From an uncultured bacterium (GTDB taxonomy: Bacteria > Cyanobacteriota > Vampirovibrionia > Gastranaerophilales > Gastranaerophilaceae), in contig CADBQQ010000053.1 of NCBI GenBank assembly GCA_902796825.1, positions 1-46,371 of the forward strand: a DNA stretch of 46,371 nt, written 5' to 3'. The position numbers and the translations under genes are program-made. Below are positions 1-46,313 of this stretch, in pieces. Numbering within the stretch: position 1 is the first letter of the stretch; each line of letters begins with the position of its first letter. Below the pieces are notes generated by a model. The model worked only from the letters and a program-made list of their open reading frames with translations, made no database searches and was not told the DNA's origin.

Positions 1-45
1 AAATGAACTTATTCACTTAATCACTTATTACCTTATTCACTTATC
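1..45. repeat. Partial TAAGT-core octamer-repeat element. Only the right arm (ACTTAWTC-type units) is present; the rest is cut by the window edge.
   Basis: GAACTTATTC ACTTAATC ACTTATTA CCTTATTC ACTTATC read directly. It has the same AAATGAACTTA junction and unit as the right arms at 8995-9020 and 29911-29950. It lies directly 3' of the stop of the 46..888 gene. Confidence 0.7.
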
Positions 46-888
46 TTACAGACTCATATAATAATCTTTTAAAATCTTTGTATCTGTTTCAATATTAGGA
101 CTCTCGCAAACAAGTGCGCCTTTTACTCCGAAAGATTTTAAAGCTTTCAATAAATCCTTATAATTCATATCCGCTTCAGAAAAAATAAGATGTCGTTTTT
201 CTCCTTTTGCGCTATATTCAATTCCTGCTAAATGCGCGTGGAAATTGTCAATAGCTTTTTGCCCGAGTTCAGTGCTTATACGATCTAAAATTTTGCAGAA
301 TTCGTCATAGGTGTTGTATTCTCCACCTGTTCTGGCATGAACATGAGAAAAATCTACACAAGGCAAAACAATGTCAAACTCTTTAGAAAGCCGGATTATT
401 TCTTCGTAATCGCCCCATTGAGTTGCTTTCCCCGTTGTTTCGGGTCTAATCCATACATTAATTTTGTTTTTTTCCAGTATATCAATTATTTTTTGTGTTT
501 GAGTTTTAACTTGTTGATAAACAGTTTCTTTATCACCTCCCATATAAAAAGCTGCGTGATACGTTATGCTGTAGCCACCAAAATCACTTGCTGCTTGAGC
601 GGTTTCGACGATTCTTTGAACACTTGCCTCAACTTTTTCTTCTTCTTTGGAATTTAAATTGATATAGAACGGTCCGTGAGAAGTTAATAAAAACCCTTTT
701 TCCTGTGTAATATGTTTCAAAAATTTTCGTGTATCATCTGACATACGAACACCGTGAACAAATTCAACTTCCAGTCCGTCAAGTCCCATATTTTCAAGAA
801 CTTTGAATGCTCCGTCATAACCCGTGTTACGTGGAGTACAAAGCGGAATTCCCGCTGTCAAAAAATTTAATTTATCTGTTGTTATCAT
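46..888 (-). CDS. Endonuclease IV-like, xylose-isomerase-like TIM-barrel protein (AP endonuclease family 2)
   Basis: ORF 46..918. Segments HGPFYINL, RPETTGK, CVDFSHVHA and FHAHL..GEKRHL resemble Endo IV metal-binding segments. I moved the start to ATG 888 because TGcTATAAT sits 6 nt upstream and no SD precedes either start. Confidence 0.7.
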   Translation of the reverse strand: MITTDKLNFLTAGIPLCTPRNTGYDGAFKVLENMGLDGLEVEFVHGVRMSDDTRKFLKHITQEKGFLLTSHGPFYINLNSKEEEKVEASVQRIVETAQAASDFGGYSITYHAAFYMGGDKETVYQQVKTQTQKIIDILEKNKINVWIRPETTGKATQWGDYEEIIRLSKEFDIVLPCVDFSHVHARTGGEYNTYDEFCKILDRISTELGQKAIDNFHAHLAGIEYSAKGEKRHLIFSEADMNYKDLLKALKSFGVKGALVCESPNIETDTKILKDYYMSL

Positions 889-5940: not shown

Positions 5941-7725
5941 ATGGCAAGAATTAAACAATTATCTAAACATTTAATCAATCAAATAGCTGCCGGAGAAGTT
6001 ATTGAACGACCTGCGTCGGTAGTGAAAGAATTAACTGAAAATTCAATAGATGCGGGAGCTTCGAGGGTGAGTATAGATATTGATAACGAGTGTCGTGACA
6101 TTCGTGTTGCGGATAACGGCTCAGGGATACATCCTGACGATATTTTGCTTGCTTTTTCTAAACATGCAACAAGTAAAATTCAGCAGGATGATGATTTGTT
6201 TGATATTCATACTTTTGGTTTCCGAGGGGAAGCTCTTGCCAGTATAATTTCAATCTCAAAAGTAACGTGTATTACCCGCACAAAAGATTTTGAAACCGGT
6301 ACAAAAGTTCACTGTGAAAATTCCGAAGTTAACCAGACCGAAACAGGTTGTGCTGTCGGAACAATTATGGAGGTTAAAGATTTATTCTATAACTTGCCTG
6401 TGCGCTTAAAATTTTTAAAAAGTTCAAACACAGAATTTTCTTATATTCAAGAAATTGTTCAAGGGATTGCGCTTTCTCATCCGGAGGTTTCAATTGAACT
6501 GAAAAAACAGGGCAAAACAATGCTCAAAACTACAGGGCAAAACAATTTGACTCAAACAATTAAAGAAGTATATTCTTCAGATGTTACGAATAATTTGAAA
6601 GAAGTTTTGCGAACGGATGAACTCGCAGGGTTAAAAATCAGCGGTTTTGTCAGCACTCCTGACTATACGCGTTCAAGCAAAAAAAGTTACCATACGTATA
6701 TAAATTCTCGCGCGGTGAAATGTCCTGTTTTCCAAAAGGCGATAGATATGGTTTACAGAAACTTGACTGCAAGTAATAAATATCCTTTTGTTGTCTTAAA
6801 TTTAGAAATTCCTCCTCATGATGTTGATGTAAATGTTCATCCGACAAAAAAAGAAGTTCGATACAAAAATCCAAATCAGATATTTAATTTTATTTATACA
6901 GCTGTTCAAGGCGGATTGTCGAATTACGTTGAGCATTCATCTCCGTCTAATGTATCAGGATTTTATTCTCCTGCCCCAAAAAAGGAAACGGAACAAGAAC
7001 ACAACAATACTGTAATTCAATTCCCAACACGTCAAAAAGATGTATATATAGACGAGAATTCTGATACTATGTATGTGCCGCAAAATGTTATGGCTGAATT
7101 TGAGCCTATAAAACCTCAGCAGCATAGTCAGCAGATAATGTTTACACCTCCGGTTGAGCAAGAGGAGCCGTTAAAAGATAAGATTATAGGGCAGTACAAA
7201 GACACATATATCTTGATTGAGACCGATGATGGACTTGAAATTGTTGATCAGCATATTGCGGAAGAACGGTACAATTATGAAAAATTAATCAATGATAAAA
7301 ATATCGTTTCTCAAATGCTATTTGTCTCTGATGTAATCAGTGTTTCGTCAAGTGAAGCAGAACTTATCAAAGAAAATATTGCAAAATTTGAACGTTTCGG
7401 TTACGGAATAGAGTTCACAGGGGGAAACGAGATTGTTTTCCGTAAAGTTCCTCAAATGCTTGCCAAAGTAAATCCTAAAGATATAATGGCAGATATTCTT
7501 GAAAATATTGAGGGGGATTTGAATAATTTAGAAGAACGTATTTTACGTACGACAGCATGCAAGGCTTCGGTGAAGGCGAATACACCGCTTTCTATCTGGC
7601 AAATGCAAGAGATTATTAAAAAATGGCGTACGACAAAAATGCCTTACACCTGCCCGCACGGCAGACCGATTTGCCATACAATACCTCATAAAGAACTTGC
7701 AGGATTTTTCCAAAGAGCAAAGTAG
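5941..7725 (+). CDS. mutL: DNA mismatch repair protein MutL
   Basis: N-terminal GHKL ATPase motifs (ELTENSIDAGA, DNGSGI, FGFRGEALASI) and a C-terminal dimerisation domain with CPHGRP. Confidence 0.95.
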   Translation: MARIKQLSKHLINQIAAGEVIERPASVVKELTENSIDAGASRVSIDIDNECRDIRVADNGSGIHPDDILLAFSKHATSKIQQDDDLFDIHTFGFRGEALASIISISKVTCITRTKDFETGTKVHCENSEVNQTETGCAVGTIMEVKDLFYNLPVRLKFLKSSNTEFSYIQEIVQGIALSHPEVSIELKKQGKTMLKTTGQNNLTQTIKEVYSSDVTNNLKEVLRTDELAGLKISGFVSTPDYTRSSKKSYHTYINSRAVKCPVFQKAIDMVYRNLTASNKYPFVVLNLEIPPHDVDVNVHPTKKEVRYKNPNQIFNFIYTAVQGGLSNYVEHSSPSNVSGFYSPAPKKETEQEHNNTVIQFPTRQKDVYIDENSDTMYVPQNVMAEFEPIKPQQHSQQIMFTPPVEQEEPLKDKIIGQYKDTYILIETDDGLEIVDQHIAEERYNYEKLINDKNIVSQMLFVSDVISVSSSEAELIKENIAKFERFGYGIEFTGGNEIVFRKVPQMLAKVNPKDIMADILENIEGDLNNLEERILRTTACKASVKANTPLSIWQMQEIIKKWRTTKMPYTCPHGRPICHTIPHKELAGFFQRAK

Positions 7726-7739
7726 GCACAAGGGAGCAA

Positions 7740-7892
7740 TTAAGTTTTTAAGTCGTTGAGACGTTAAGTCGCTAAGTCGTTGAGTCGTTAAGTTCAGTAC
7801 GGTGCTTGCGCACAAATAATTTAGCCTATTTAGCCTGTAGGGCTGAAAAGAACTTATAGACTTAACGTCTTAACGTCCCATAGTCTTATCGT
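7740..7892. repeat. TAAGT-core octamer inverted-repeat element, CG variant
   Basis: Left arm 7740-7795 has 7 tandem units TTAAGTCG-like. Right arm 7852-7891+ has units ACTTAACG/TCTTAACG-like, which are the reverse complement. The central ~55 bp contains TTTAGCCT x2 and GGGCTGAAAAG. It lies between convergent mutL and the ROK kinase and overlaps the kinase's last 7 codons and stop. Confidence 0.85.
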
Positions 7893-8838
7893 CCTCAAAC
7901 AGCATACTTGCGCCTATTACACCTGCGCTGTTGCCAAGTTCAGCAGGAACGATTTGGACACTTTCTCGCGCAACTTTCATTGCGCGTGCTTTAATTGTTC
8001 TGCGAATAGGTTCCAATATAAGTTCGCCTGAGTCTGCAACTCCGCCGCCAATGATTACTTTTTCAGGATTAAGAAGATTGATTACACTTGTTAATCCCAG
8101 TCCGATGTATTCTCCTATAGTTTCAAATATACGTTTTGCAACCACATCACCTGCTTCAGCTGCTTTTGCAACAATGTAAGGAGTAATTTCTCCATCACCT
8201 GCCATCTCGCTAAATTTTGCGGCTTTACCGCCTTTAATGTAGTCCTGAGCCATTGCAACAATTGCAGGACCGGAAGCGAAAGCTTCAAAACATCCTGTAT
8301 CTCCGCAGCCGCATAAAGGACCATCTTTCATTTGGAGTTTGATATGTCCGATTTCGCCTGCTGCGTTTGCGCAACCACGAACAAGCTGTCCGTTAATTAC
8401 AATACCCGAACCTATTCCGGTTCCGACTGTGATACAGATAAAATTCCGGCATCCTCTGCCTGCGCCGAATTTCATTTCGCCTAAAGCTGCACATCTTACA
8501 TCATTATCAACTTTTGTTGGTATGTGAAATTCATCTTCTATCATTTTTGCAATAGGTACATTTACCCAGCCCGGAATGTTTGGGGCAAGTTTTACTATCC
8601 CGTTTTGATAATCAATTTGCCCGGGAAAATCAAATCCAATCGCTTCAATATTTGTTTCATTGGTATTTGTCTCTTTCATAAGATCGCGTATTGCTTGTTT
8701 TATGTTATTGACGGTATATTCATAACCCATTTTTGCGTAAGTCGGAACGCTGTTTGAGTAAATTATTTTTCCTTGTTCATCTACGAGTGCTATTTTAACA
8801 TTTGTTCCGCCGACGTCTATGCCTATTCTTTTTCCCAT
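7870..8838 (-). CDS. ROK-family sugar kinase (glucokinase-like)
   Basis: IGIDVGGTN ATP-binding start and ROK zinc motif GPLCGCGDTGCFE. I moved the start to ATG 8838 (MGKRIG), which has AAGGAG 7 nt upstream. Confidence 0.88.
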   Translation of the reverse strand: MGKRIGIDVGGTNVKIALVDEQGKIIYSNSVPTYAKMGYEYTVNNIKQAIRDLMKETNTNETNIEAIGFDFPGQIDYQNGIVKLAPNIPGWVNVPIAKMIEDEFHIPTKVDNDVRCAALGEMKFGAGRGCRNFICITVGTGIGSGIVINGQLVRGCANAAGEIGHIKLQMKDGPLCGCGDTGCFEAFASGPAIVAMAQDYIKGGKAAKFSEMAGDGEITPYIVAKAAEAGDVVAKRIFETIGEYIGLGLTSVINLLNPEKVIIGGGVADSGELILEPIRRTIKARAMKVARESVQIVPAELGNSAGVIGASMLFEDDKTMGR

Positions 8839-8894
8839 TTTTGTTCTCCTTCTTATAGTGTGAGTATAGCATGAAAGCGAAAGAATAGATGACA

Positions 8895-9020
8895 AAGTGA
8901 ATAAGTGATTAGGTGAATAGGTGATTAAGTTCGTTACAAACTATTTATTAATGTTATTTAAGCACTCTGTTGACCTAAAGCTAAAAACCGAAATGAACTT
9001 AATCACTTAATCACTTAACT
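8895..9020. repeat. TAAGT-core octamer inverted-repeat element, GA variant
   Basis: Left arm AAGTGAAT AAGTGATT AGGTGAAT AGGTGATT AAGT at 8895-8934. Right arm GAACTT AATCACTT AATCACTT AACT at 8995-9020, which is the reverse complement. A ~60-bp AT-rich centre separates them. Confidence 0.85.
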
Positions 9021-9064
9021 CTCTCTACATGTAAACTTTTGTAAACATCCCTTTGTCCAATTCT

Positions 9065-9092
9065 TAAAGTTTTCATAGTGAAATGCCGAAGT
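9065..9092 (+). promoter_or_regulatory. Sigma-28 (FliA)-type promoter, TAAAGTTT-N12-GCCGAAGT
   Basis: Close to the established consensus TAAA-N15-GCCGATAA (E. coli TAAAGTTT-N11-GCCGATAA). It lies ~45 nt upstream of ATG 9140. The same -10 octamer and spacing recur at 13824-13851. Confidence 0.6.
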
Positions 9093-9139
9093 AGTACATG
9101 AAAGGACAGAGTTCGAAGTAATTTATAGAAAGGAAAGCA

Positions 9140-11065
9140 ATGGGATTATCATCAGCACAAGCTAGATTATTAACCATAACAGCCAGAAAATCTGACTGCG
9201 AATTCCAATCTATGAGTTTGTCGCATCAGAAATTGGCACTTTCAAGAGATATGGAAAGTATTACTGATGAATATCAGAATGCTTTGAATGCAACTAAGTT
9301 AGTTTATGATTTTTATGGTACAGGCGGAAGCCAGATGGCATTGAATTATTCATTATTGATGACACCGTCTGTTTATAATGATTTTTCTCCGAGATTTGTG
9401 ACAGATGCAACTAACAGGGTTATATTGAACCCTGAGTTGGCAAATGTTGCAAGGGCTTGCGGTATACCTATGGAGGGGTATGGCGGAACTAATTCTGACG
9501 ATATGAGGGCTGCTTTTATTCAAGCATTGGCGAATGAAGGAATTTTGAGTGCTTCTGAAGTTGCTTCTATTGAAAACGTTGCTTATGACAACGCTGCAGG
9601 CTTGGGATACGGTGTTGTGACGGATGAAGCTATAGAATACTTGACTTATGAGGACTTAATAAGCCAGTTGAAATCAACAGGTATCAATGATATGAATGAT
9701 TATGGCTTGTATCTGGGCGATTTCTACACTTTATATTCTAATGGTGAAGAAAATTGGAGATTGTTGTCCTCACGTGATAATACCAAATTTGGCGATGCCG
9801 GTTGGAATCTTGAAGAATATAAGACAGGAAATAATAAAACAACAACATCTGTTTATTCTACTGATGGTGGCAATGCTGCTACAGGTATATATGTAAAAAG
9901 ATCAGGGGATACTAATGGTTATAAATATGAAACTACTACAACGCCATGTTATGTGAGTGATCTTGGAAAATACTATTTAAATGGTAACACCTATGCAAAG
10001 TATAATGGGCGTGATAATAATTATGATTATTTTAACAATCCTATAACAACACCAATAAAATTTACAGATTTATTAACCGGTGAGGATCAATATACATTTG
10101 CAATTGATTCCAAGAACGGTGTTGTTACAGATGCTGCGTATATGCAAAGATTGATGTGCGGAGACGACAACGGGGACACCAAATCTGTATTAGGATGGAT
10201 GACAGATCAATTGTTGTCGGTTCTTGGTGAAACCGATTTGAATATTCAAGCACTGGATTATGCAAGAGGTTGCATATTAGATTTAATTTGGCCGGATAAT
10301 AGTATTCAAAATGCAGCTACAAGTTATCCTACAAGTTCAGAAGTAAAACATGACGGTGATAAATATGTCAAGAATGCTTCCGGTAAAGATTGTTATAACG
10401 AAACATCAGGTAATAAATGGAACGATACCGTATCACAAGCTGAAAATGTACTTGGTTTTTATACAAATACCAGTTCAGGTATATCAATCAACTTAAACAA
10501 CATTGCTAAGGTATTTATGACGTCATTTGTTGACTATATTCAAGGTATGGAAAATACTAACTATGCTTATGGTCCTATGAAAAAAAGTAATGCAACGTTG
10601 TTCAATTCAAAAACAGATACAAATGTGGTATTTGAACAGCTTGTAGGTTATACTACAGATACCGGCGCGGATACTACTCTTGCAAACTTCTACGATACAA
10701 TGTTCAACATAATCTGTACTCAAGGTTGGACAGAAAACGGAAGAATAGATGATGCCGATTATATGCAAGAAATGATGAAAAACGGCATGGTATATATGTC
10801 TACAATCGGCCACGACGGAACTTACGGTCAAAGCAACTATACAACAGACAAATATGTTTTAGAAGTTGCAGACGAAGAAGCAATCACCCGCGCAGAAGCT
10901 AAATATAAAGCAGCAAAAGCAAGAATTGAAAATAAAGAAAACACTCTTGACTTGAAAATGAAAAGTCTTGATACAGAAATTTCTTCACTAAATCAAGAAT
11001 ATGAAACAGCAAAAACATTGATTAAAAACGCTGTAGATAAATCGTTTACAAGGTATCAAGCTTAA
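9140..11065 (+). CDS. Uncharacterised 641-aa protein with helical N- and C-termini and an N/T/Y/G/D-rich core; candidate flagellum-coexpressed or exported protein
   Basis: Long ORF with an AAAGGAAAG SD-like element. The N-terminal helix is LSSAQARLLTITARKSDCEFQ... and the C-terminal coiled-coil-like segment is NTLDLKMKSLDTEISSLNQEYETAKTLIKNAVDKSF. I recognise no family motif. Confidence 0.8.
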   Translation: MGLSSAQARLLTITARKSDCEFQSMSLSHQKLALSRDMESITDEYQNALNATKLVYDFYGTGGSQMALNYSLLMTPSVYNDFSPRFVTDATNRVILNPELANVARACGIPMEGYGGTNSDDMRAAFIQALANEGILSASEVASIENVAYDNAAGLGYGVVTDEAIEYLTYEDLISQLKSTGINDMNDYGLYLGDFYTLYSNGEENWRLLSSRDNTKFGDAGWNLEEYKTGNNKTTTSVYSTDGGNAATGIYVKRSGDTNGYKYETTTTPCYVSDLGKYYLNGNTYAKYNGRDNNYDYFNNPITTPIKFTDLLTGEDQYTFAIDSKNGVVTDAAYMQRLMCGDDNGDTKSVLGWMTDQLLSVLGETDLNIQALDYARGCILDLIWPDNSIQNAATSYPTSSEVKHDGDKYVKNASGKDCYNETSGNKWNDTVSQAENVLGFYTNTSSGISINLNNIAKVFMTSFVDYIQGMENTNYAYGPMKKSNATLFNSKTDTNVVFEQLVGYTTDTGADTTLANFYDTMFNIICTQGWTENGRIDDADYMQEMMKNGMVYMSTIGHDGTYGQSNYTTDKYVLEVADEEAITRAEAKYKAAKARIENKENTLDLKMKSLDTEISSLNQEYETAKTLIKNAVDKSFTRYQA

Positions 11066-15058: not shown

Positions 15059-15932
15059 TTATTAAAAGCTCCAAAAAATCGTAAATCTTCTTTTTAAACT
15101 CGTTTTCAGGTAATTTTGAAATCTGAATTTTCGCTTTTTCTATATAATTATTCAACAAATCTCTTGTTTTTTCAATACCTTGAGTATAATTTTCAATACT
15201 TCCTGAATATATAATCGGAGCATTGTAAATACCGTCTTTGAGGTCATTGTTTACGGGTTTTGATTTATCGGTGTTTACAAGGTTTAAAATGTCATCTCTA
15301 ATTTGAAAAGCAATTCCGATATTTAATCCTATTTTGCCTGAAATATCCATATTTTGTGAATGTGTTCCGAGTATTGTACAGCACTTAAAAGCTGTTTCAA
15401 AAAGATAGGCTGTTTTATTTTTAGATTTTTCTATATATTCATCTATTGTGCCTATTTTAAATCTGTTAAAATTTTGGTTGATTTCTCCAATACACATTTG
15501 CCTGATTGTAGAAATAAATTTTTCCAAAATATCTTTAGAATTTAGATTAGTAATTATATCCATTGCGATGCTTAACAGGTAATCTCCTGAGATTACGGCA
15601 AGTTTGTTTCCAAATTCTGCATTAATCGTTTTTTTATTCCTGCGCAAATCACTTTCATCAATTATATCATCATGAATGAGCGAAGCGTTATGTACAAGTT
15701 CTATAGCGCAAAGTAAGTCAAGTTGTTGATTTGATAGTTCTTCACCAAGCGCTTTCGTGTATAAAATAGGCAGGACTGAACGAATTCTTTTTGATGGGCT
15801 TATTAAAAATTTTTTCAGATGGCTGTTAAGCGGTTCAATAATATTTACACTTGAAACCAGTTTATCCTCTATAATTGACAATTCTTTTGAGGCATATTGT
15901 TTAATTGTAGAATATTTTTCATCAAAATTCAT
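15051..15932 (-). CDS. Polyprenyl diphosphate synthase (long-chain, IspB/solanesyl type)
   Basis: Two DDxxD motifs, LIHDDIIDESDLRRN and FQIRDDILN. Confidence 0.9.
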   Translation of the reverse strand: MNFDEKYSTIKQYASKELSIIEDKLVSSVNIIEPLNSHLKKFLISPSKRIRSVLPILYTKALGEELSNQQLDLLCAIELVHNASLIHDDIIDESDLRRNKKTINAEFGNKLAVISGDYLLSIAMDIITNLNSKDILEKFISTIRQMCIGEINQNFNRFKIGTIDEYIEKSKNKTAYLFETAFKCCTILGTHSQNMDISGKIGLNIGIAFQIRDDILNLVNTDKSKPVNNDLKDGIYNAPIIYSGSIENYTQGIEKTRDLLNNYIEKAKIQISKLPENEFKKKIYDFLELLIND

Positions 15933-18638: not shown

Positions 18639-20022
18639 TATTTACTTGAAGAAGTTCTTTGCCAAGATTAGTAATGCTTCCTGCGCCAAGTCCTATTACG
18701 ATATCTCCTGATTTTAATGTCGGGAAAAGCTTTTTGGCAACTTCTGAGATGCTGCCTTGAATATATTCACAAGGAATTTCAATTTTTTCTTTCAATTCAT
18801 TTGTGAAAATTTCAGAATTTACACCCTCTATAGGAGTTTCGCTTGCTGCGTAAACGTCAGTTACTACCACTCTGTCAACACTTGAAAATGCTTCCATAAA
18901 TTCATTCCAGAGATTTTGTAATCTTGTGTATCTGTGCGGTTGGAAAACTGCAATTACGTTTCTGTCTTTAAAAGATTTTGAAGCGCTTAAAGTTGCTTTA
19001 ATTTCTGTCGGGTGATGAGCGTAGTCATCATAAATTGTAATTCCGTTGAATTCGCTAACTTTTTGAAAACGTCTGCCCATTCCTGTAAAATCAGCAAAAT
19101 AAGGATTTACACAAGAAGTATCCACTCCGGCTTCTTTTAAGCTTGCCCAAACAGCAAGTGAATTGTATACGTTATGTACACCTTTTAAACAAATTTTTAA
19201 TGTTGTTTGAAATTCATTTTTATAATATATGTCAAACGTTGTAAATTCTTCACCATAATTTATATTTTTCGCGCAATAATCAGTGTTGCCACCAATAGAG
19301 TATGTTACAAATTTTGCATTATGACCGAGTTCGTGTTCTGAAAAATACTTAACCAGTAGTTTTACTCCGTCATTATCGGTATTTGCAAGAATAATACCGT
19401 TTTCACGCATATTTGAAATAAATTTTTCAAAAGTTTCCAATATAGATTCCAAACCGTTTTTGTAAAAATCTAAATGATCAGGCTCAAGATTATTTACTAC
19501 AACCAGATTTGGCGAATATTTTACAATCGTTCCGTCGCTTTCGTCTAATTCCGCTATGAAATATTTTTTGTGTGAACAGTCTGCATTCGTGTTGAAATCC
19601 GGTATTATTCCGCCAACAACGTAAGACGGTTTTAATCCTGCTTTTCCCATTACGTAAGAGCATAAACCGGAAGTCGTTGTTTTACCGTGTGTTCCTGAGT
19701 ATCCTATGAAAAATTCTTCATTTCGAGAAATTTCTGCCAGTAAATCTGATCTGTGCCAAATAGGAAGTCCAAGACGTTTGGCTTTTTGTATCTCAGGATT
19801 TGAGTCTTTGATTGCGGTGCTTGCTATTACCGTACAATTTTCAGGCAAATTGCTTTCATCATGTCCTATGTATACTGTTGCGCCTAAATCGCGGACACTT
19901 TTTACATATTTGCTGTCGCTGATATCGGAGCCTGAGACTTCAAAACCGTTTTGCAAAAGATATTTTGCAAGCCCGCTCATTCCTACTCCTCCGATTGCTA
20001 TAAAATGGTATTTCTTTTTCAA
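18613..20022 (-). CDS. murC: UDP-N-acetylmuramate--L-alanine ligase
   Basis: IGGVGMSGLA and GTHGKTTT motifs. The apparent start is TTG with AGGGA upstream. Confidence 0.95.
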   Translation of the reverse strand: MKKKYHFIAIGGVGMSGLAKYLLQNGFEVSGSDISDSKYVKSVRDLGATVYIGHDESNLPENCTVIASTAIKDSNPEIQKAKRLGLPIWHRSDLLAEISRNEEFFIGYSGTHGKTTTSGLCSYVMGKAGLKPSYVVGGIIPDFNTNADCSHKKYFIAELDESDGTIVKYSPNLVVVNNLEPDHLDFYKNGLESILETFEKFISNMRENGIILANTDNDGVKLLVKYFSEHELGHNAKFVTYSIGGNTDYCAKNINYGEEFTTFDIYYKNEFQTTLKICLKGVHNVYNSLAVWASLKEAGVDTSCVNPYFADFTGMGRRFQKVSEFNGITIYDDYAHHPTEIKATLSASKSFKDRNVIAVFQPHRYTRLQNLWNEFMEAFSSVDRVVVTDVYAASETPIEGVNSEIFTNELKEKIEIPCEYIQGSISEVAKKLFPTLKSGDIVIGLGAGSITNLGKELLQVNNERVKVGN

Positions 20023-20147
20023 AATTACATCCCTATCTATTTATATTTGTGTTTATACCAATTATAATACTAAAATCTTAATCGTCGCAGAATTTTATAA
20101 ATTTTAACATACCGGCAAAAAATATTTTTAGAATTTTATATTTAATT

Positions 20148-22160: not shown

Positions 22161-22562
22161 ATGGTTTGTAAAGTGCTTTTCTTTGATATGAATGAGGAAG
22201 AAAAAACTTATTTGGAAGAACATAAATCTGATTATTTCAATATTGAATTTTTCGAAAACAGTTTAAATGATGAAACTGTAAAATGTATAAAAACCCGCGA
22301 TTTTGAAGAAGCGGTGATGATTAGCGTTCGTCCGCATTCGAGGGTTAGTGAGAATATTATAAAAAGATTTGAAAACTTAAGGCTCATTGCTTCGCGTGCG
22401 CAAGAATACAATTACATTGACTGGCGATATTGTCTTAATAATAACATCGCAATTATAAATGTAGAAACAAATAAAGACAATTCTTATGAATATATTTTAA
22501 AAAATTCTTTTGCGGGAATGACGGATTTCTTGTGCGGCGGGAAGGATTATCGTGTTGTTTAA
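22161..22562 (+). CDS. Stand-alone N-terminal (substrate-binding) domain of a D-isomer 2-hydroxyacid dehydrogenase; the NAD-binding domain is absent
   Basis: KVLFFDMNEEEKTYLEE...RLIASRAQEYNYID...NIAIINV matches the first ~110 aa of D-LDH-like enzymes. There is no GxGxxG Rossmann segment. AAAGGAG SD. Confidence 0.6.
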   Translation: MVCKVLFFDMNEEEKTYLEEHKSDYFNIEFFENSLNDETVKCIKTRDFEEAVMISVRPHSRVSENIIKRFENLRLIASRAQEYNYIDWRYCLNNNIAIINVETNKDNSYEYILKNSFAGMTDFLCGGKDYRVV

Positions 22563-22608
22563 TGTTAAAATTTTTACTTAAACAAAAAAATGCACTACAA
22601 TATTTGTT

Positions 22609-26230: not shown

Positions 26231-26559
26231 ATGAAAGAAATAAAATTCTATAGCCTGCCAAATGGGAAAGAACCTGTTAAAGAATGGCTGTTGAATTTGG
26301 ACAATTCAATACATTAAAGATTATCCGGCGAATTGAACGAATTTATGATGACAACTTTGGAGATTTTAAACAGCTTGATTCTAATTTATACGAATTAAGA
26401 TTTAAAATTGGTAAAGGATATAGAATTTATTACACAATACAAAATAGTGCAGTGGTTTTACTGTTAAATGCAGGCGATAAATCAAAACAAGCAAGTGATA
26501 TTGAGCTTGCAAAATCGTATATAAAAAATTTAAGGGAAAACGAAAATGACAGATTTTAA
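26231..26559 (+). pseudogene. higB: HigB-like RelE/ParE-family toxin (addiction module killer) split by a 1-nt frameshift
   Basis: Frame 1 reads MKEIKFYSLPNGKEPVKEWLLNLDNSIH then stops at 26315. Translation continues in another frame as LKIIRRIERIYDDNFGDFKQL...GYRIYY. One extra T in CATTAAAG would restore a canonical toxin. Confidence 0.75.
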
Positions 26560-26833
26560 TGATTTTGTAATAGAACAGCTTAAAGATGTTGAATTTCAAA
26601 AAGAATATATGAACGATTCACTTGAACAATATGTGAATGATGGTGATTTTAATGCTTTTTTTCATTCACTGGAAATGGTAATAAAGTCACGCGATAGCAT
26701 TTCAGGCTTCTGTGAAAAAGCCGGTATTGATAGGGCTATGCTTTATGATATTTTTGCGGGGAAAAGAGTTCCGCGTGTTGATACACTCGCAAAAATTCTC
26801 AAAACGCTGGGTTACAACCTGAAAGTCGCATAG
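26546..26833 (+). CDS. higA: HigA-like antitoxin (addiction module antidote, HTH)
   Basis: The sequence ends ...SISGFCEKAGIDRAMLYDIFAGKRVPRVDTLAKILKTLGYNL. It overlaps the end of the toxin gene by 14 nt. Confidence 0.85.
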   Translation: MTDFNDFVIEQLKDVEFQKEYMNDSLEQYVNDGDFNAFFHSLEMVIKSRDSISGFCEKAGIDRAMLYDIFAGKRVPRVDTLAKILKTLGYNLKVA

Positions 26834-29843: not shown

Positions 29844-29950
29844 ATGGTGATTAAGTGACTAAGTGATTAAGTTAATAAGTACTTAAAAAAAATATTAATA
29901 AATGAAATGTACTTATTCACCTATTCACTTATTCACTTAATCACTTTATA
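29844..29950. repeat. TAAGT-core octamer inverted-repeat element (GA variant) inside the hydrogenase operon
   Basis: Left arm ATGGTGAT TAAGTGAC TAAGTGAT TAAGTTAA TAAGTACT at 29844-29883. Right arm ACTTATTC ACCTATTC ACTTATTC ACTTAATC ACTTTATA at 29911-29950. The hydS stop (29941-29943) lies inside the right arm. Confidence 0.85.
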
Positions 29951-35212: not shown

Positions 35213-35341
35213 CTTGTAAGTTGGGCATACTTGCCAGGCAGAACATATCGTAAGTTGGGCTTTCAGCCCAACCAAACAAAGAATAGGTGACAAATTGTAA
35301 GTTGGGCTTTTAGCCCAACAATGCAAAGAATGGATAACAAG
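35213..35341. repeat. Three copies of TGTAAGTTGGGC; copies 2 and 3 form ~47-bp tandem units, each with a perfect hairpin GTTGGGCT-ttY-AGCCCAAC
   Basis: Copies start at 35216, 35250 and 35297. The spacers share CAAAGAATGG. The element shares the TAAGT core and GAATAGGTGA with the octamer elements. Confidence 0.85.
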
Positions 35342-44238: not shown

Positions 44239-44429
44239 CTCAACTATCCCTTTGATTTATCCCCGAGGTTAGTCTCCCCGATACTACAATAACTTATATT
44301 CCAAGGTGTGACATCAATCTTTTAATTGATATTTTAAAAAAGTCAGATTTATATGAAAAAATTTATAATTTTAATTATAGGTGCGAGCATTTAATGAGAG
44401 TTAGATAGACTTAACTTTAAATAACTTTT

Positions 44430-46206: not shown

Positions 46207-46313
46207 AACAGAATAATTATATCTGTTATTGACATTTAAATTAAAATACATTATATTATTATTCGCATACAATTAATAATATTCGAATACGAATATAATA
46301 AAGGAGAAAGTTT

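Follow-up and report, generated by a model that had tools for sequence, protein, structure and literature searches.

Here we present an analysis of a family of small intergenic elements, built from inverted arrays of tandem 8-bp units, in a 46,371-nucleotide stretch of DNA (contig CADBQQ010000053.1 of assembly GCA_902796825.1, positions 1 to 46,371; hereafter the window), and of their relationship to cassettes that carry a gene of the PF05635 protein family. The window has ~35% GC and comes from a rumen Melainabacteria/Gastranaerophilales chromosome, a lineage that is sister to the Cyanobacteria; one homologue of its ROK kinase bears the name 'Cyanobacteria bacterium SIG26'. Its genes comprise mutL, the ROK kinase gene, lepA, murB/murC/ddl/ftsQ, gyrB, adk, metG, flagellar export genes and Fe-only hydrogenases. 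Pfam scans of the ~40 open reading frames (ORFs) returned ordinary chromosomal or housekeeping genes only, with no transposase, reverse transcriptase or RAYT (repetitive extragenic palindromic (REP)-associated tyrosine transposase) gene among them, in agreement with the initial annotation, which had seen nothing resembling a transposase. Rfam revealed no rRNA in the window, and all four copies of the element lie between protein-coding genes. Furthermore, no Rfam family reached its gathering score over the whole window or E<=1 over 7650-9150, and blastn gave no match to phages.

The window holds 3.5 elements, designated A (right half only, cut by the window edge), B, C and D. The common layout is an octamer array, the junction TAAGTTC(G/A), a unique centre of 17-55 nt, the junction (G)AAA(T/A)G(A/T)ACTTA and a complementary octamer array. 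The octamer unit is TAAGTGA(T/A) (TAAGTGAW) in A, C and D and of the TAAGTCGT type in B; the left inner junction is TAAGTTCG (TAAGTTC) and the right one is AAATGAACTTA, GAAAAGAACTTA or GAAATGTACTTA. Period-8 arrays were placed by Tandem Repeats Finder at 7-44, 7740-7793, 7861-7877, 8895-8930, 8997-9018, 29847-29880 and 29911-29946; across the whole window, chains of TAAGT-like cores with 8-bp spacing occur in the four elements only. A half-element profile (nhmmer) detected exactly seven half-elements in the window, the right half of A and both halves of B, C and D, and nothing else. The repeat finder, the inverted-repeat search and the profile search together bear out the design first described for these loci, tandem octamers, a centre and reverse-complement octamers, and the shared junctions hold as well. 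The site originally given for element C, 8895-9020, also stands, except for its left edge, since the arm reaches ~8884 through two degenerate units. The parts are as follows.

1-45, plus strand: element A, right junction AAATGAACTTA (1-11) and right arm ACTTATTC, ACTTAATC, ACTTATTA, CCTTATTC, ACTTATC (nhmmer E=8e-9).
46-48, minus strand: stop codon of a xylose-isomerase-like TIM-barrel gene, directly adjoining element A.
7741-7796, plus strand: element B, left arm of seven octamers, TAAGTTTT, TAAGTCGT, TGAGACGT, TAAGTCGC, TAAGTCGT, TGAGTCGT, TAAGTTCA, the last being the junction (E=1e-8).
7797-7844, plus strand: element B, centre, unique sequence of higher GC content that forms small hairpins itself; no ORF.
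7845-7892, plus strand: element B, right junction GAAAAGAACTTA and right arm ACTTATAG, ACTTAACG, TCTTAACG, TCCCATAG, TCTTATCG (E=4.5e-9).
8884-8934, plus strand: element C, left arm GAATAGAT, GACAAAGT, GAATAAGT, GATTAGGT, GAATAGGT, GATTAAGT, ending in the junction TAAGTTCG (8927-8934) (E=5e-11).
8935-8989, plus strand: element C, centre, AT-rich, no ORF, aligning weakly to untranslated parts of the full L209 cassette described below.
8990-9019, plus strand: element C, right junction GAAATGAACTTA and right arm ACTTAATC, ACTTAATC, ACTTAAC (E=2.6e-6).
29846-29886, plus strand: element D, left arm GGTGAT, TAAGTGAC, TAAGTGAT, TAAGTTAA, TAAGTACT.
29887-29903, plus strand: element D, short A/T loop.
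29904-29949, plus strand: element D, right junction GAAATGTACTTA and right arm ACTTATTC, ACCTATTC, ACTTATTC, ACTTAATC, ACTTTAT (E=4.5e-10; fold z=-9.0).

When these positions were mapped against gene ends, element A was found to abut the stop codon of the TIM-barrel gene, while mutL and ROK converge on B, the left arm of which begins 16 nt past the mutL stop codon. At 7870-7893 the right arm of B encodes the 3' end of the minus-strand ROK gene (7870-8838), namely its last 8 codons and the stop. The ROK gene (minus strand) and a gene for a 641-aa protein without a Pfam domain (plus strand) are divergent, and element C falls wholly within the spacer that separates them, with an operator-like conserved box on one side and the sequence immediately preceding the ROK gene on the other; the ROK gene is bracketed by B and C, as had been noted. 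Element D occupies the spacer between two minus-strand genes: 10 nt separate its left arm from the start codon (29836) of a SpoIIE-type phosphatase gene, and its right arm overlaps the stop codon (29941-29943) of the upstream, Fe-hydrogenase-like gene, which is encoded within the arm (29941-29949). Two window elements supply the stop codon of the upstream gene. The ROK proteins of relatives end ~8 residues sooner, which, together with the gene ends encoded by the arms, indicates that host genes had their 3' ends reshaped by the insertions.

The three longest inverted repeats of the 46-kb window are its three complete elements, with arm complementarity of 89% in D (29847-29944), 76% in B (7741-7888) and 85% in C (8909-9018). 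Folding of the plus strand as RNA gave z-scores of -4.6 for C, -5.4 for B and -9.0 for D, with 0/200 shuffles folding as well, so that the hairpins of all three are far stronger than those of shuffled sequence. Additionally, the co-variation of the arms, which the initial annotation had read from a few copies, proved to be real in a statistical test: an arm found its best partner in its own opposite arm in 16 of 23 independent elements, and the observed total score was reached by 0/20000 permutations. The locus L214 (related loci are given here by L numbers) is short by exactly one octamer in comparison with nine sister contigs, which shows unit slippage. A higher-order tandem amplification of whole arm-plus-junction modules was seen in L180 (12440-12800), with ~48-bp units on the left and ~52-bp units on the right in 3-4 copies each.

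Elements of the same architecture that enclose a gene were found in other genomes. In L129, two arrays surround a 117-aa ORF of PF05635, the '23S rRNA-intervening sequence protein' family (E=1e-35). A tblastn search with this protein against all loci collected gave three matches, L033, L069 and L052, each of which had been recovered solely through the TAAGT-array pattern. The PF05635 gene stands directly against the array in L033 (a proteobacterial metagenome-assembled genome, MAG), in L069 (a Thiohalomonas MAG, where it is a pseudogene) and in L052 (Saccharibacteria, where TAAGTTC is followed immediately by the start codon), and a later profile search confirmed the family assignment in all three. 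Also, three different homologues of the L129 protein were found between rimP and nusA, each flanked by inverted octamer arrays. From such loci the order of a full cassette can be read as a 5' array (3-8 or more 7/8-bp repeats, purine-rich on the sense strand), a leader, a ~115-aa gene, a trailer and a complementary 3' array. The cassette protein is a four-helix bundle of PF05635 / TIGR02436, a family related to the Avd protein of diversity-generating retroelements (PMC10053308). Its closest solved homologue is XCC0516 (2GSC, E=6e-26), deposited as five chains and described, in a title cited in PMC3936711, as five four-helix bundles.

A full cassette with matching ends occurs in L209-L218, from gut bacteria related to the host, in which a 114-aa PF05635 gene, P0043 (TIGR02436 E=7e-36), lies between rimP and nusA. 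This cassette ends in TATAAGTGAATGGGTGAATAAGTGAATAAGTTCGTTTTAAAA on the left and AAAATGAACTTATTCACTTATTGACACATTCACTTATTGAC on the right, and its unit (TAAGTGAA) and junctions (TAAGTTCG, AAATGAACTTA) also characterise elements A, C and D of the window. Once the ORF was taken out, the remaining L209 sequence could be aligned from one end to the other at 86% identity with L117, 85% with element D, 80% with element C and 67% with element B. The leader and trailer of the cassette are recognisable in L117, which is thus a clean ORF deletion; L117 and L113, both Melainabacteria/Gastranaerophilales MAGs, carry elements of the same design. The end-to-end alignment identifies the window elements as ORF-less derivatives of that cassette family. 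We consider it very probable, from these alignments, that all four are miniatures of a selfish PF05635 cassette without its ORF; the window copies retain both arms and the inner junctions of one Gastranaerophilales subfamily and have lost the gene.

Outside this subfamily the units change while the design persists. Sister cassettes at rimP-nusA (L199, L219), and L129 elsewhere in the genome of a relative, have units GCGATAAG and TTTGATAAG/TAGGATAAG, with arms that are still complementary. The TAAGT core emphasised in the initial annotation is accordingly a property of the window subfamily and not a universal core, since sister cassettes use GCGATAAG, TTTGATAAG or AGTTTGAA; across the diverged Gastranaerophilales cassettes a core ATAAG/TAAGT is kept, and the units are strictly periodic. 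The proteins of L129 and P0006, which are 72% identical, are both accompanied by GCGATAAG units.

To place the window copies among their relatives, orthologous loci were gathered in a metagenome scan with the ROK protein (about 50 loci, 70-86% identity, ~0.75 Mb). TAAGT arrays are essentially absent from them, and against the seven half-elements of the TAAGTGAW type in the 46-kb window there are weak profile matches only in ~810 kb of orthologous loci of relatives. The junction AAGTTCNTTTC occurs nine times in 888 kb of related DNA, eight of them at array junctions. The spacer upstream of ROK can be aligned across relatives through a conserved box, TTGTAACA..TTTACAA, and is polymorphic: empty in L131, occupied by a same-design element with GGATAAGT units in L180, and occupied by element C in the window. 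The comparison across relatives that had been proposed from the outset thus identifies the window elements as lineage-specific insertions with presence/absence polymorphism. Elements of the same design with other units occur in relatives, AGTTTGAA/CAAACCTG in L180, AAGTTGAA in L151 and ACTAAGGC/CTTAGTGC in L057. For element B there is no comparator, as gene order downstream of ROK is not conserved in relatives.

Two further observations concern this spacer. The region (cf. window 8839-9139) is a hotspot of unrelated small selfish inserts in L126, L137/L139, L143 and L180, among which, named by eye from translation, are genes for a GIY-YIG-like nuclease (L137/L139) and a DUF559-like endonuclease (L126); L143 carries another inverted-repeat element at this position. 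Also, a palindromic box, TTGTAACAAATATTTACAA (GTTTACAAAAGTTTACATG in the window, ~9040-9065), is conserved upstream of the divergent 641-aa gene and recurs in L127, L130, L131, L134, L143-L145, L148, L169 and L180; it is probably an operator or promoter element.

The generality of the cassette design was assessed in finished plasmids. A tblastn search with P0043 retrieved 30 records, mostly from Cyanobacteria, plus Riemerella, Gemmatirosa and Azospirillum, and 16 of the PF05635 genes, picked by protein similarity alone, were analysed. Period-7/8 arrays lie within 200 bp of all 16 genes, on both sides in 14 and on one side in 2, as compared with a background of 0.0085 per 200 bp. Arm length has a median of ~4-5 units and ranges from 3 to >15, and 16/17 cassettes, when read in the direction of the ORF, have a purine-rich 5' arm. 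Representative arrays upstream and downstream of the gene are listed here.

Nostoc edaphicum: upstream (AGTAGGG)x8, downstream (TCCCTAC)x5.
Nostoc C052: upstream (GGGAACA)x4, downstream (TGTTCCC)x7.
Calothrix: upstream (GGGTGTA), downstream (TACACCC).
Anabaena 90: upstream (GTGACAG), downstream (CTGTCAC).
Riemerella: upstream (GGTTYAA), downstream (AACCTTG).
Gemmatirosa: 8-mers upstream and downstream.

The homologous cassettes of Cyanobacteria and Riemerella are built of heptamers, and PF05635 genes stand between inverted heptamer arrays in Nostoc, Calothrix, Anabaena, Geminocystis and Stanieria. In Azospirillum lipoferum, a PF05635 cassette whose arms are inverted heptamer arrays is inserted in a 23S rRNA gene, and is thus a bona fide intervening sequence (IVS) with the same inverted tandem-repeat arms. 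ORF-less forms also occur outside the host lineage: plasmid pNPUN02 of Nostoc punctiforme (L246) carries two ORF-less inverted-heptamer elements, at 19961-20135 (units CAATTCG/AATTGCG) and 22341-22600 (AGGAGTC/GACTCCT), the second of which shares its unit AGGAGTC with a PF05635 cassette at 15234-15640, 7 kb away. Several of the genes are wedged into operon spacers, namely rimP-nusA in gut Gastranaerophilales (L199-L228), cas6-cas4 in Anabaena sp. 90 and Pseudanabaena and cas10-cmr3 in Picosynechococcus (in the set L232, L233, L243, L229), and, in Nostoc edaphicum, the spacer that parts the genes for the alpha and beta subunits of ribonucleotide reductase. PF05635 genes between cas4 and cas6 have been noticed before (PMC3936711); the present setting suggests that the reported association with cas genes may be one of selfish insertion.

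The contig pattern scan, (TAAGTNNN)x3TAAGT, which yielded the Melainabacteria relatives and the three PF05635 loci, is not a census, and (TAAG)n or perfect 8-mer microsatellites dominate among the matches listed. A TAAGTTC junction conserved across phyla (L071, L072) was considered and rejected, as the similarity is only partial and the TAAGT bias stems from the search pattern. As a separate observation, AT-rich imperfect TTAAGTNN arrays occur in high-GC MAGs labelled Clostridiales, Gammaproteobacteria and Kiritimatiellaeota (L071 4117-4330, L072 7314-7440, L055 7700-7860, L107 4965-5055), some as inverted pairs round a short GC-rich ORF-less centre; these are probably further ORF-less members of the class, from other phyla.

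Taken as a whole, the best explanation is that the window elements are gene-less copies of PF05635 cassettes, the arms of which would form a processable hairpin, a reading to which we assign a probability of about 0.7. According to this model, the arms would pair into a long imperfect hairpin, which in a transcript would be a double-stranded RNA stem that RNase III could cut, as experiments have demonstrated for rRNA-borne IVS. Such a stem would allow the element to be tolerated in tight operon spacers, at gene ends and even in rRNA, and the miniatures would persist as intergenic hairpins able to reshape neighbouring 3' ends. The tandem structure would shift by unit slippage, with the two arms staying alike. 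The parts of the model do not all carry the same weight. That hairpin formation or RNase III processing is the relevant activity has, by analogy with the rRNA-borne elements, somewhat less than an even chance. A full cassette at another site in the genome could possibly mobilise the copies in trans; that such mobilisation depends on the PF05635 protein is doubtful.

A number of observations weigh against this explanation. Neither tblastn nor a profile search of the six-frame translation found a PF05635 ORF in the window, and the gene is likewise absent from the other sequence reached from the host species, so that a cognate full cassette in the same genome is only assumed. RNase III cutting is an extrapolation from the rRNA-borne IVS of other bacteria. 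The arm mismatches are symmetric, 38 being G.U-compatible on the sense strand and 35 on the antisense strand, which gives no support to selected pairing in one RNA orientation; this symmetry would fit DNA-level pairing or concerted evolution equally well, and RNA pairing is for this reason not claimed from the sequence. Complementarity of the arms is not absolute, as the arms of L049 are built of different units, and on a Pseudanabaena galeata plasmid (L233) the arrays around the PF05635 gene, AAAAGCT x15.6 (278-386) and AAAAGCC x14 (754-851), are direct rather than inverted, an exception to the hairpin design. Furthermore, the four window copies share one orientation (plus strand) regardless of the direction of the neighbouring genes, and element C, in a divergent promoter spacer, may lie outside any read-through transcription. 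Finally, no target-site duplication is visible at the element edges, and there is no empty site from within the species for comparison, the nearest ROK homologue being only 87% identical, so that the boundaries stay undefined.

The alternative that survives best extends rather than excludes the cassette-derivative explanation. It holds that the tandem units are binding sites, in DNA or RNA, of a pentameric PF05635 protein that promotes excision, copying or integration, and that ORF-less copies are moved in trans in the manner of miniature inverted-repeat transposable elements (MITEs). The strict periodicity of the units and the ATAAG/TAAGT core kept across diverged Gastranaerophilales cassettes are what one would expect of such sites, and a long stem alone would not need tandem periodicity. 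The median arm of ~4-5 units can be set beside the five chains in which the homologue 2GSC was deposited; arm lengths, however, span 3 to >15 units. Unit type follows protein similarity (L129/P0006, 72% identical, both GCGATAAG), but common descent predicts this equally well. The presence of ORF-less and ORF-bearing copies with the same unit on one N. punctiforme replicon also speaks for it, whereas no catalytic activity is known for PF05635 proteins, and work on Coxiella suggests that S23p is not even made in vivo (PMC4990558). On balance we regard this alternative as unlikely, at about the same level as the PF05635 dependence of mobilisation. The broadest form of the idea would make PF05635 cassettes and their ORF-less miniatures one widespread, unrecognised class of mobile element, in which the 7-8-bp arrays are putative recognition sites of a pentameric protein that drives spread with no canonical transposase. 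This is more speculative still. If true, one class would account for 23S rRNA IVS, part of the cyanobacterial short tandemly repeated repetitive (STRR) sequences, and PF05635 genes wedged in operons such as cas6-cas4, cas10-cmr3, rimP-nusA and those of the ribonucleotide reductase subunits.

Much less probable is a host function under selection, with the arrays serving as 8-bp-periodic operators (of the kind bound by MetJ or ribbon-helix-helix proteins), terminators, mRNA stabilisers or small RNAs. The placement of element C, with a conserved operator-like box on one side and the ROK promoter region on the other, the position of A, B and D at gene 3' ends, and the strength of the hairpins are all in keeping with such a role. 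Nevertheless, the elements are missing from the orthologous spacers of relatives, their units differ within one genome (B as against A, C and D), and their neighbours (mutL, ROK, hydrogenase and TIM-barrel genes) are unrelated; we saw neither an element conserved at one orthologous site across species nor a functionally linked regulon. A promoter/terminator consensus scan found neither a terminator-like site nor a promoter consensus within B and C, the two elements covered. The stems of all four elements are AT-rich without a T run after them, and hence do not have the form of an intrinsic terminator; the lack of a U tract and of a promoter consensus, and the absence of an Rfam match (at E<=1 over 7650-9150), count against the host-function reading together. 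Four related ideas, a Rho-utilisation-like C-rich arm, -10-like TTAAGT boxes, TRAP/HutP-like RNA arrays and ribbon-helix-helix operators, were set aside from sequence alone because none accounts for the link to a gene family or for the variation of units between copies.

A neutral origin in place, as 'palindromic microsatellites' formed by replication slippage and intrastrand template switching with neither mobility nor function, is already disfavoured, and we consider it improbable to a slightly greater degree than a host function. Copy number does vary by whole units (L214), the arm mismatches are symmetric between the strands, and L180 shows higher-order tandem amplification, all of which speaks for this reading. 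However, the dispersed copies share non-repetitive junctions, and in part the leader and trailer, with each other and with the full cassette of another genome, which independent origins in place cannot produce, and the arrays are tightly tied to one gene family across phyla. An artefact of metagenome assembly, by chimeric joins or collapsed repeats, is barely credible: the window and most related loci are indeed metagenome contigs or MAGs, but the same ROK protein, including its element-encoded tail, is found on 9 contigs and the mutL protein on 8, and the same architecture is present in finished isolate genomes (Nostoc, Calothrix, Anabaena, Riemerella, Azospirillum).

Two other places in the window had been connected with the family at first and do not belong to it. 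The array at 35213-35341, between gyrB and adk, which was thought to be related, is a different thing and was rejected as a member: the half-element profile does not detect it, and it consists of three copies of GTAAGTTGGGC in a ~47-bp tandem unit, two of the copies forming GTTGGGC-loop-GCCCAAC hairpins. At 35277-35296, however, it agrees in 18/20 bases with 8881-8900, the left edge of element C, and it may have some other relation to the family. The 11-mer at 44405-44415, which had been listed as a lone recurrence of arm sequence, is an isolated match with no array beside it. Elsewhere in the window, a Gp49-like toxin gene and a helix-turn-helix (HTH) antidote gene form a pair at 26284-26833, and a 20-bp tandem repeat, AATACGAATATAATAATATTCG, is present in 2.7 copies at 46245-46301, near the window end.

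The interest of the cassette-derivative explanation is that it brings together three long-standing puzzles: 23S rRNA IVS, STRR repeats, and the small 'four helix bundle protein' genes scattered through operons of many phyla. To our knowledge the cyanobacterial STRR repeats have no known origin. A shared architecture, a gene or its remnant inside inverted arrays of short tandem repeats, would cover all three; the same design may lie behind part of the STRR repeats, and gene-less miniatures of the cassette would multiply in intergenic DNA. This is a concrete and testable model for all three puzzles, and it provides a simple rule by which many intergenic hairpins of Melainabacteria, Cyanobacteria and Bacteroidota, so far unexplained, could be annotated. 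It also advises caution, as PF05635 genes beside cas or other genes may be selfish inserts and not functional partners. Full-text searches found no paper that links PF05635 genes to flanking tandem arrays, STRR or ORF-less derivatives; older subscription literature was not covered by them, and an earlier description is possible.

Several known systems resemble the window elements in part. The eukaryotic foldback transposons have long terminal inverted repeats made of short tandem repeats and many copies without coding capacity; they are eukaryotic and much longer, and the likeness is one of architecture only, with no homology implied. REP sequences, bacterial interspersed mosaic elements (BIMEs) and REPINs are likewise intergenic, hairpin-forming and multicopy, and REPINs, as inverted doublets, are of similar total size. 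The REP/BIME-like reading offered in the initial annotation does not hold, because the window arms have no short (20-40-bp) GC-rich palindromic unit and no GTAG/CGTC tag, and there is no RAYT (IS200/IS605-like Y1) gene among the ~40 window ORFs or beside the related cassettes. MITEs are small, multicopy and intergenic, with terminal inverted repeats and presence/absence polymorphism, and are non-coding derivatives of a longer coding element. The window elements share these features, but the longer element with matching ends encodes a four-helix-bundle protein and no recognisable transposase, and their inverted repeats are arrays of variable units; no direct repeat of the kind left by target-site duplication is evident at the element edges, the boundaries of which are not fixed. 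The cyanobacterial STRR heptamers, reportedly described by Mazel et al. in 1990, are also short tandem arrays in intergenic DNA of the cyanobacterial lineage. The analogy to them drawn in the initial annotation stands insofar as the same cassette design uses heptamers in Cyanobacteria; the window period is 8 rather than 7, which separates the window copies from STRR heptamers, and the classic STRR1-3 unit sequences are not among the units seen here.

Nearest, together with the STRR repeats, are the IVS of rRNA genes. Short ORF-less IVS of enterobacterial and Campylobacter 23S rRNA are ~100-150-nt AT-rich hairpins in helices 25 and 45 that are removed by RNase III; compared by description only, the window elements resemble them in length (~100-150 nt), in hairpin form and in having no ORF. 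The window copies are not insertions in 23S helix 25 or 45 and hence are not 23S rRNA IVS in the strict sense. They differ from the S23p/PF05635 IVS of the Leptospira, Coxiella and Xanthomonas type in having no ORF, in lying between protein-coding genes and in arms that are explicit arrays of 8-bp units; also, RNase III processing is established for the rRNA-borne IVS and is a prediction for the window elements. With PF05635 cassettes they share terminal and junction homology and long-stem inverted repeats, and since no PF05635 ORF is present in the window they are classed as ORF-less derivatives and not as full members. The Coxiella IVS has terminal inverted repeats in a 28-bp stem, carries the S23p ORF and is excised by RNase III, and tandem heptamers upstream of the ORF vary in number between strains; the origin and mobility of IVS were described as not known (PMC4990558). 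The S23p IVS and the window elements thus have in common terminal inverted repeats that form a long stem, a gene of the same protein family, carried in the case of the window elements by their full-length relatives, and short tandem repeats near the ORF that are variable in number, heptamers between Coxiella strains and octamers in L214.

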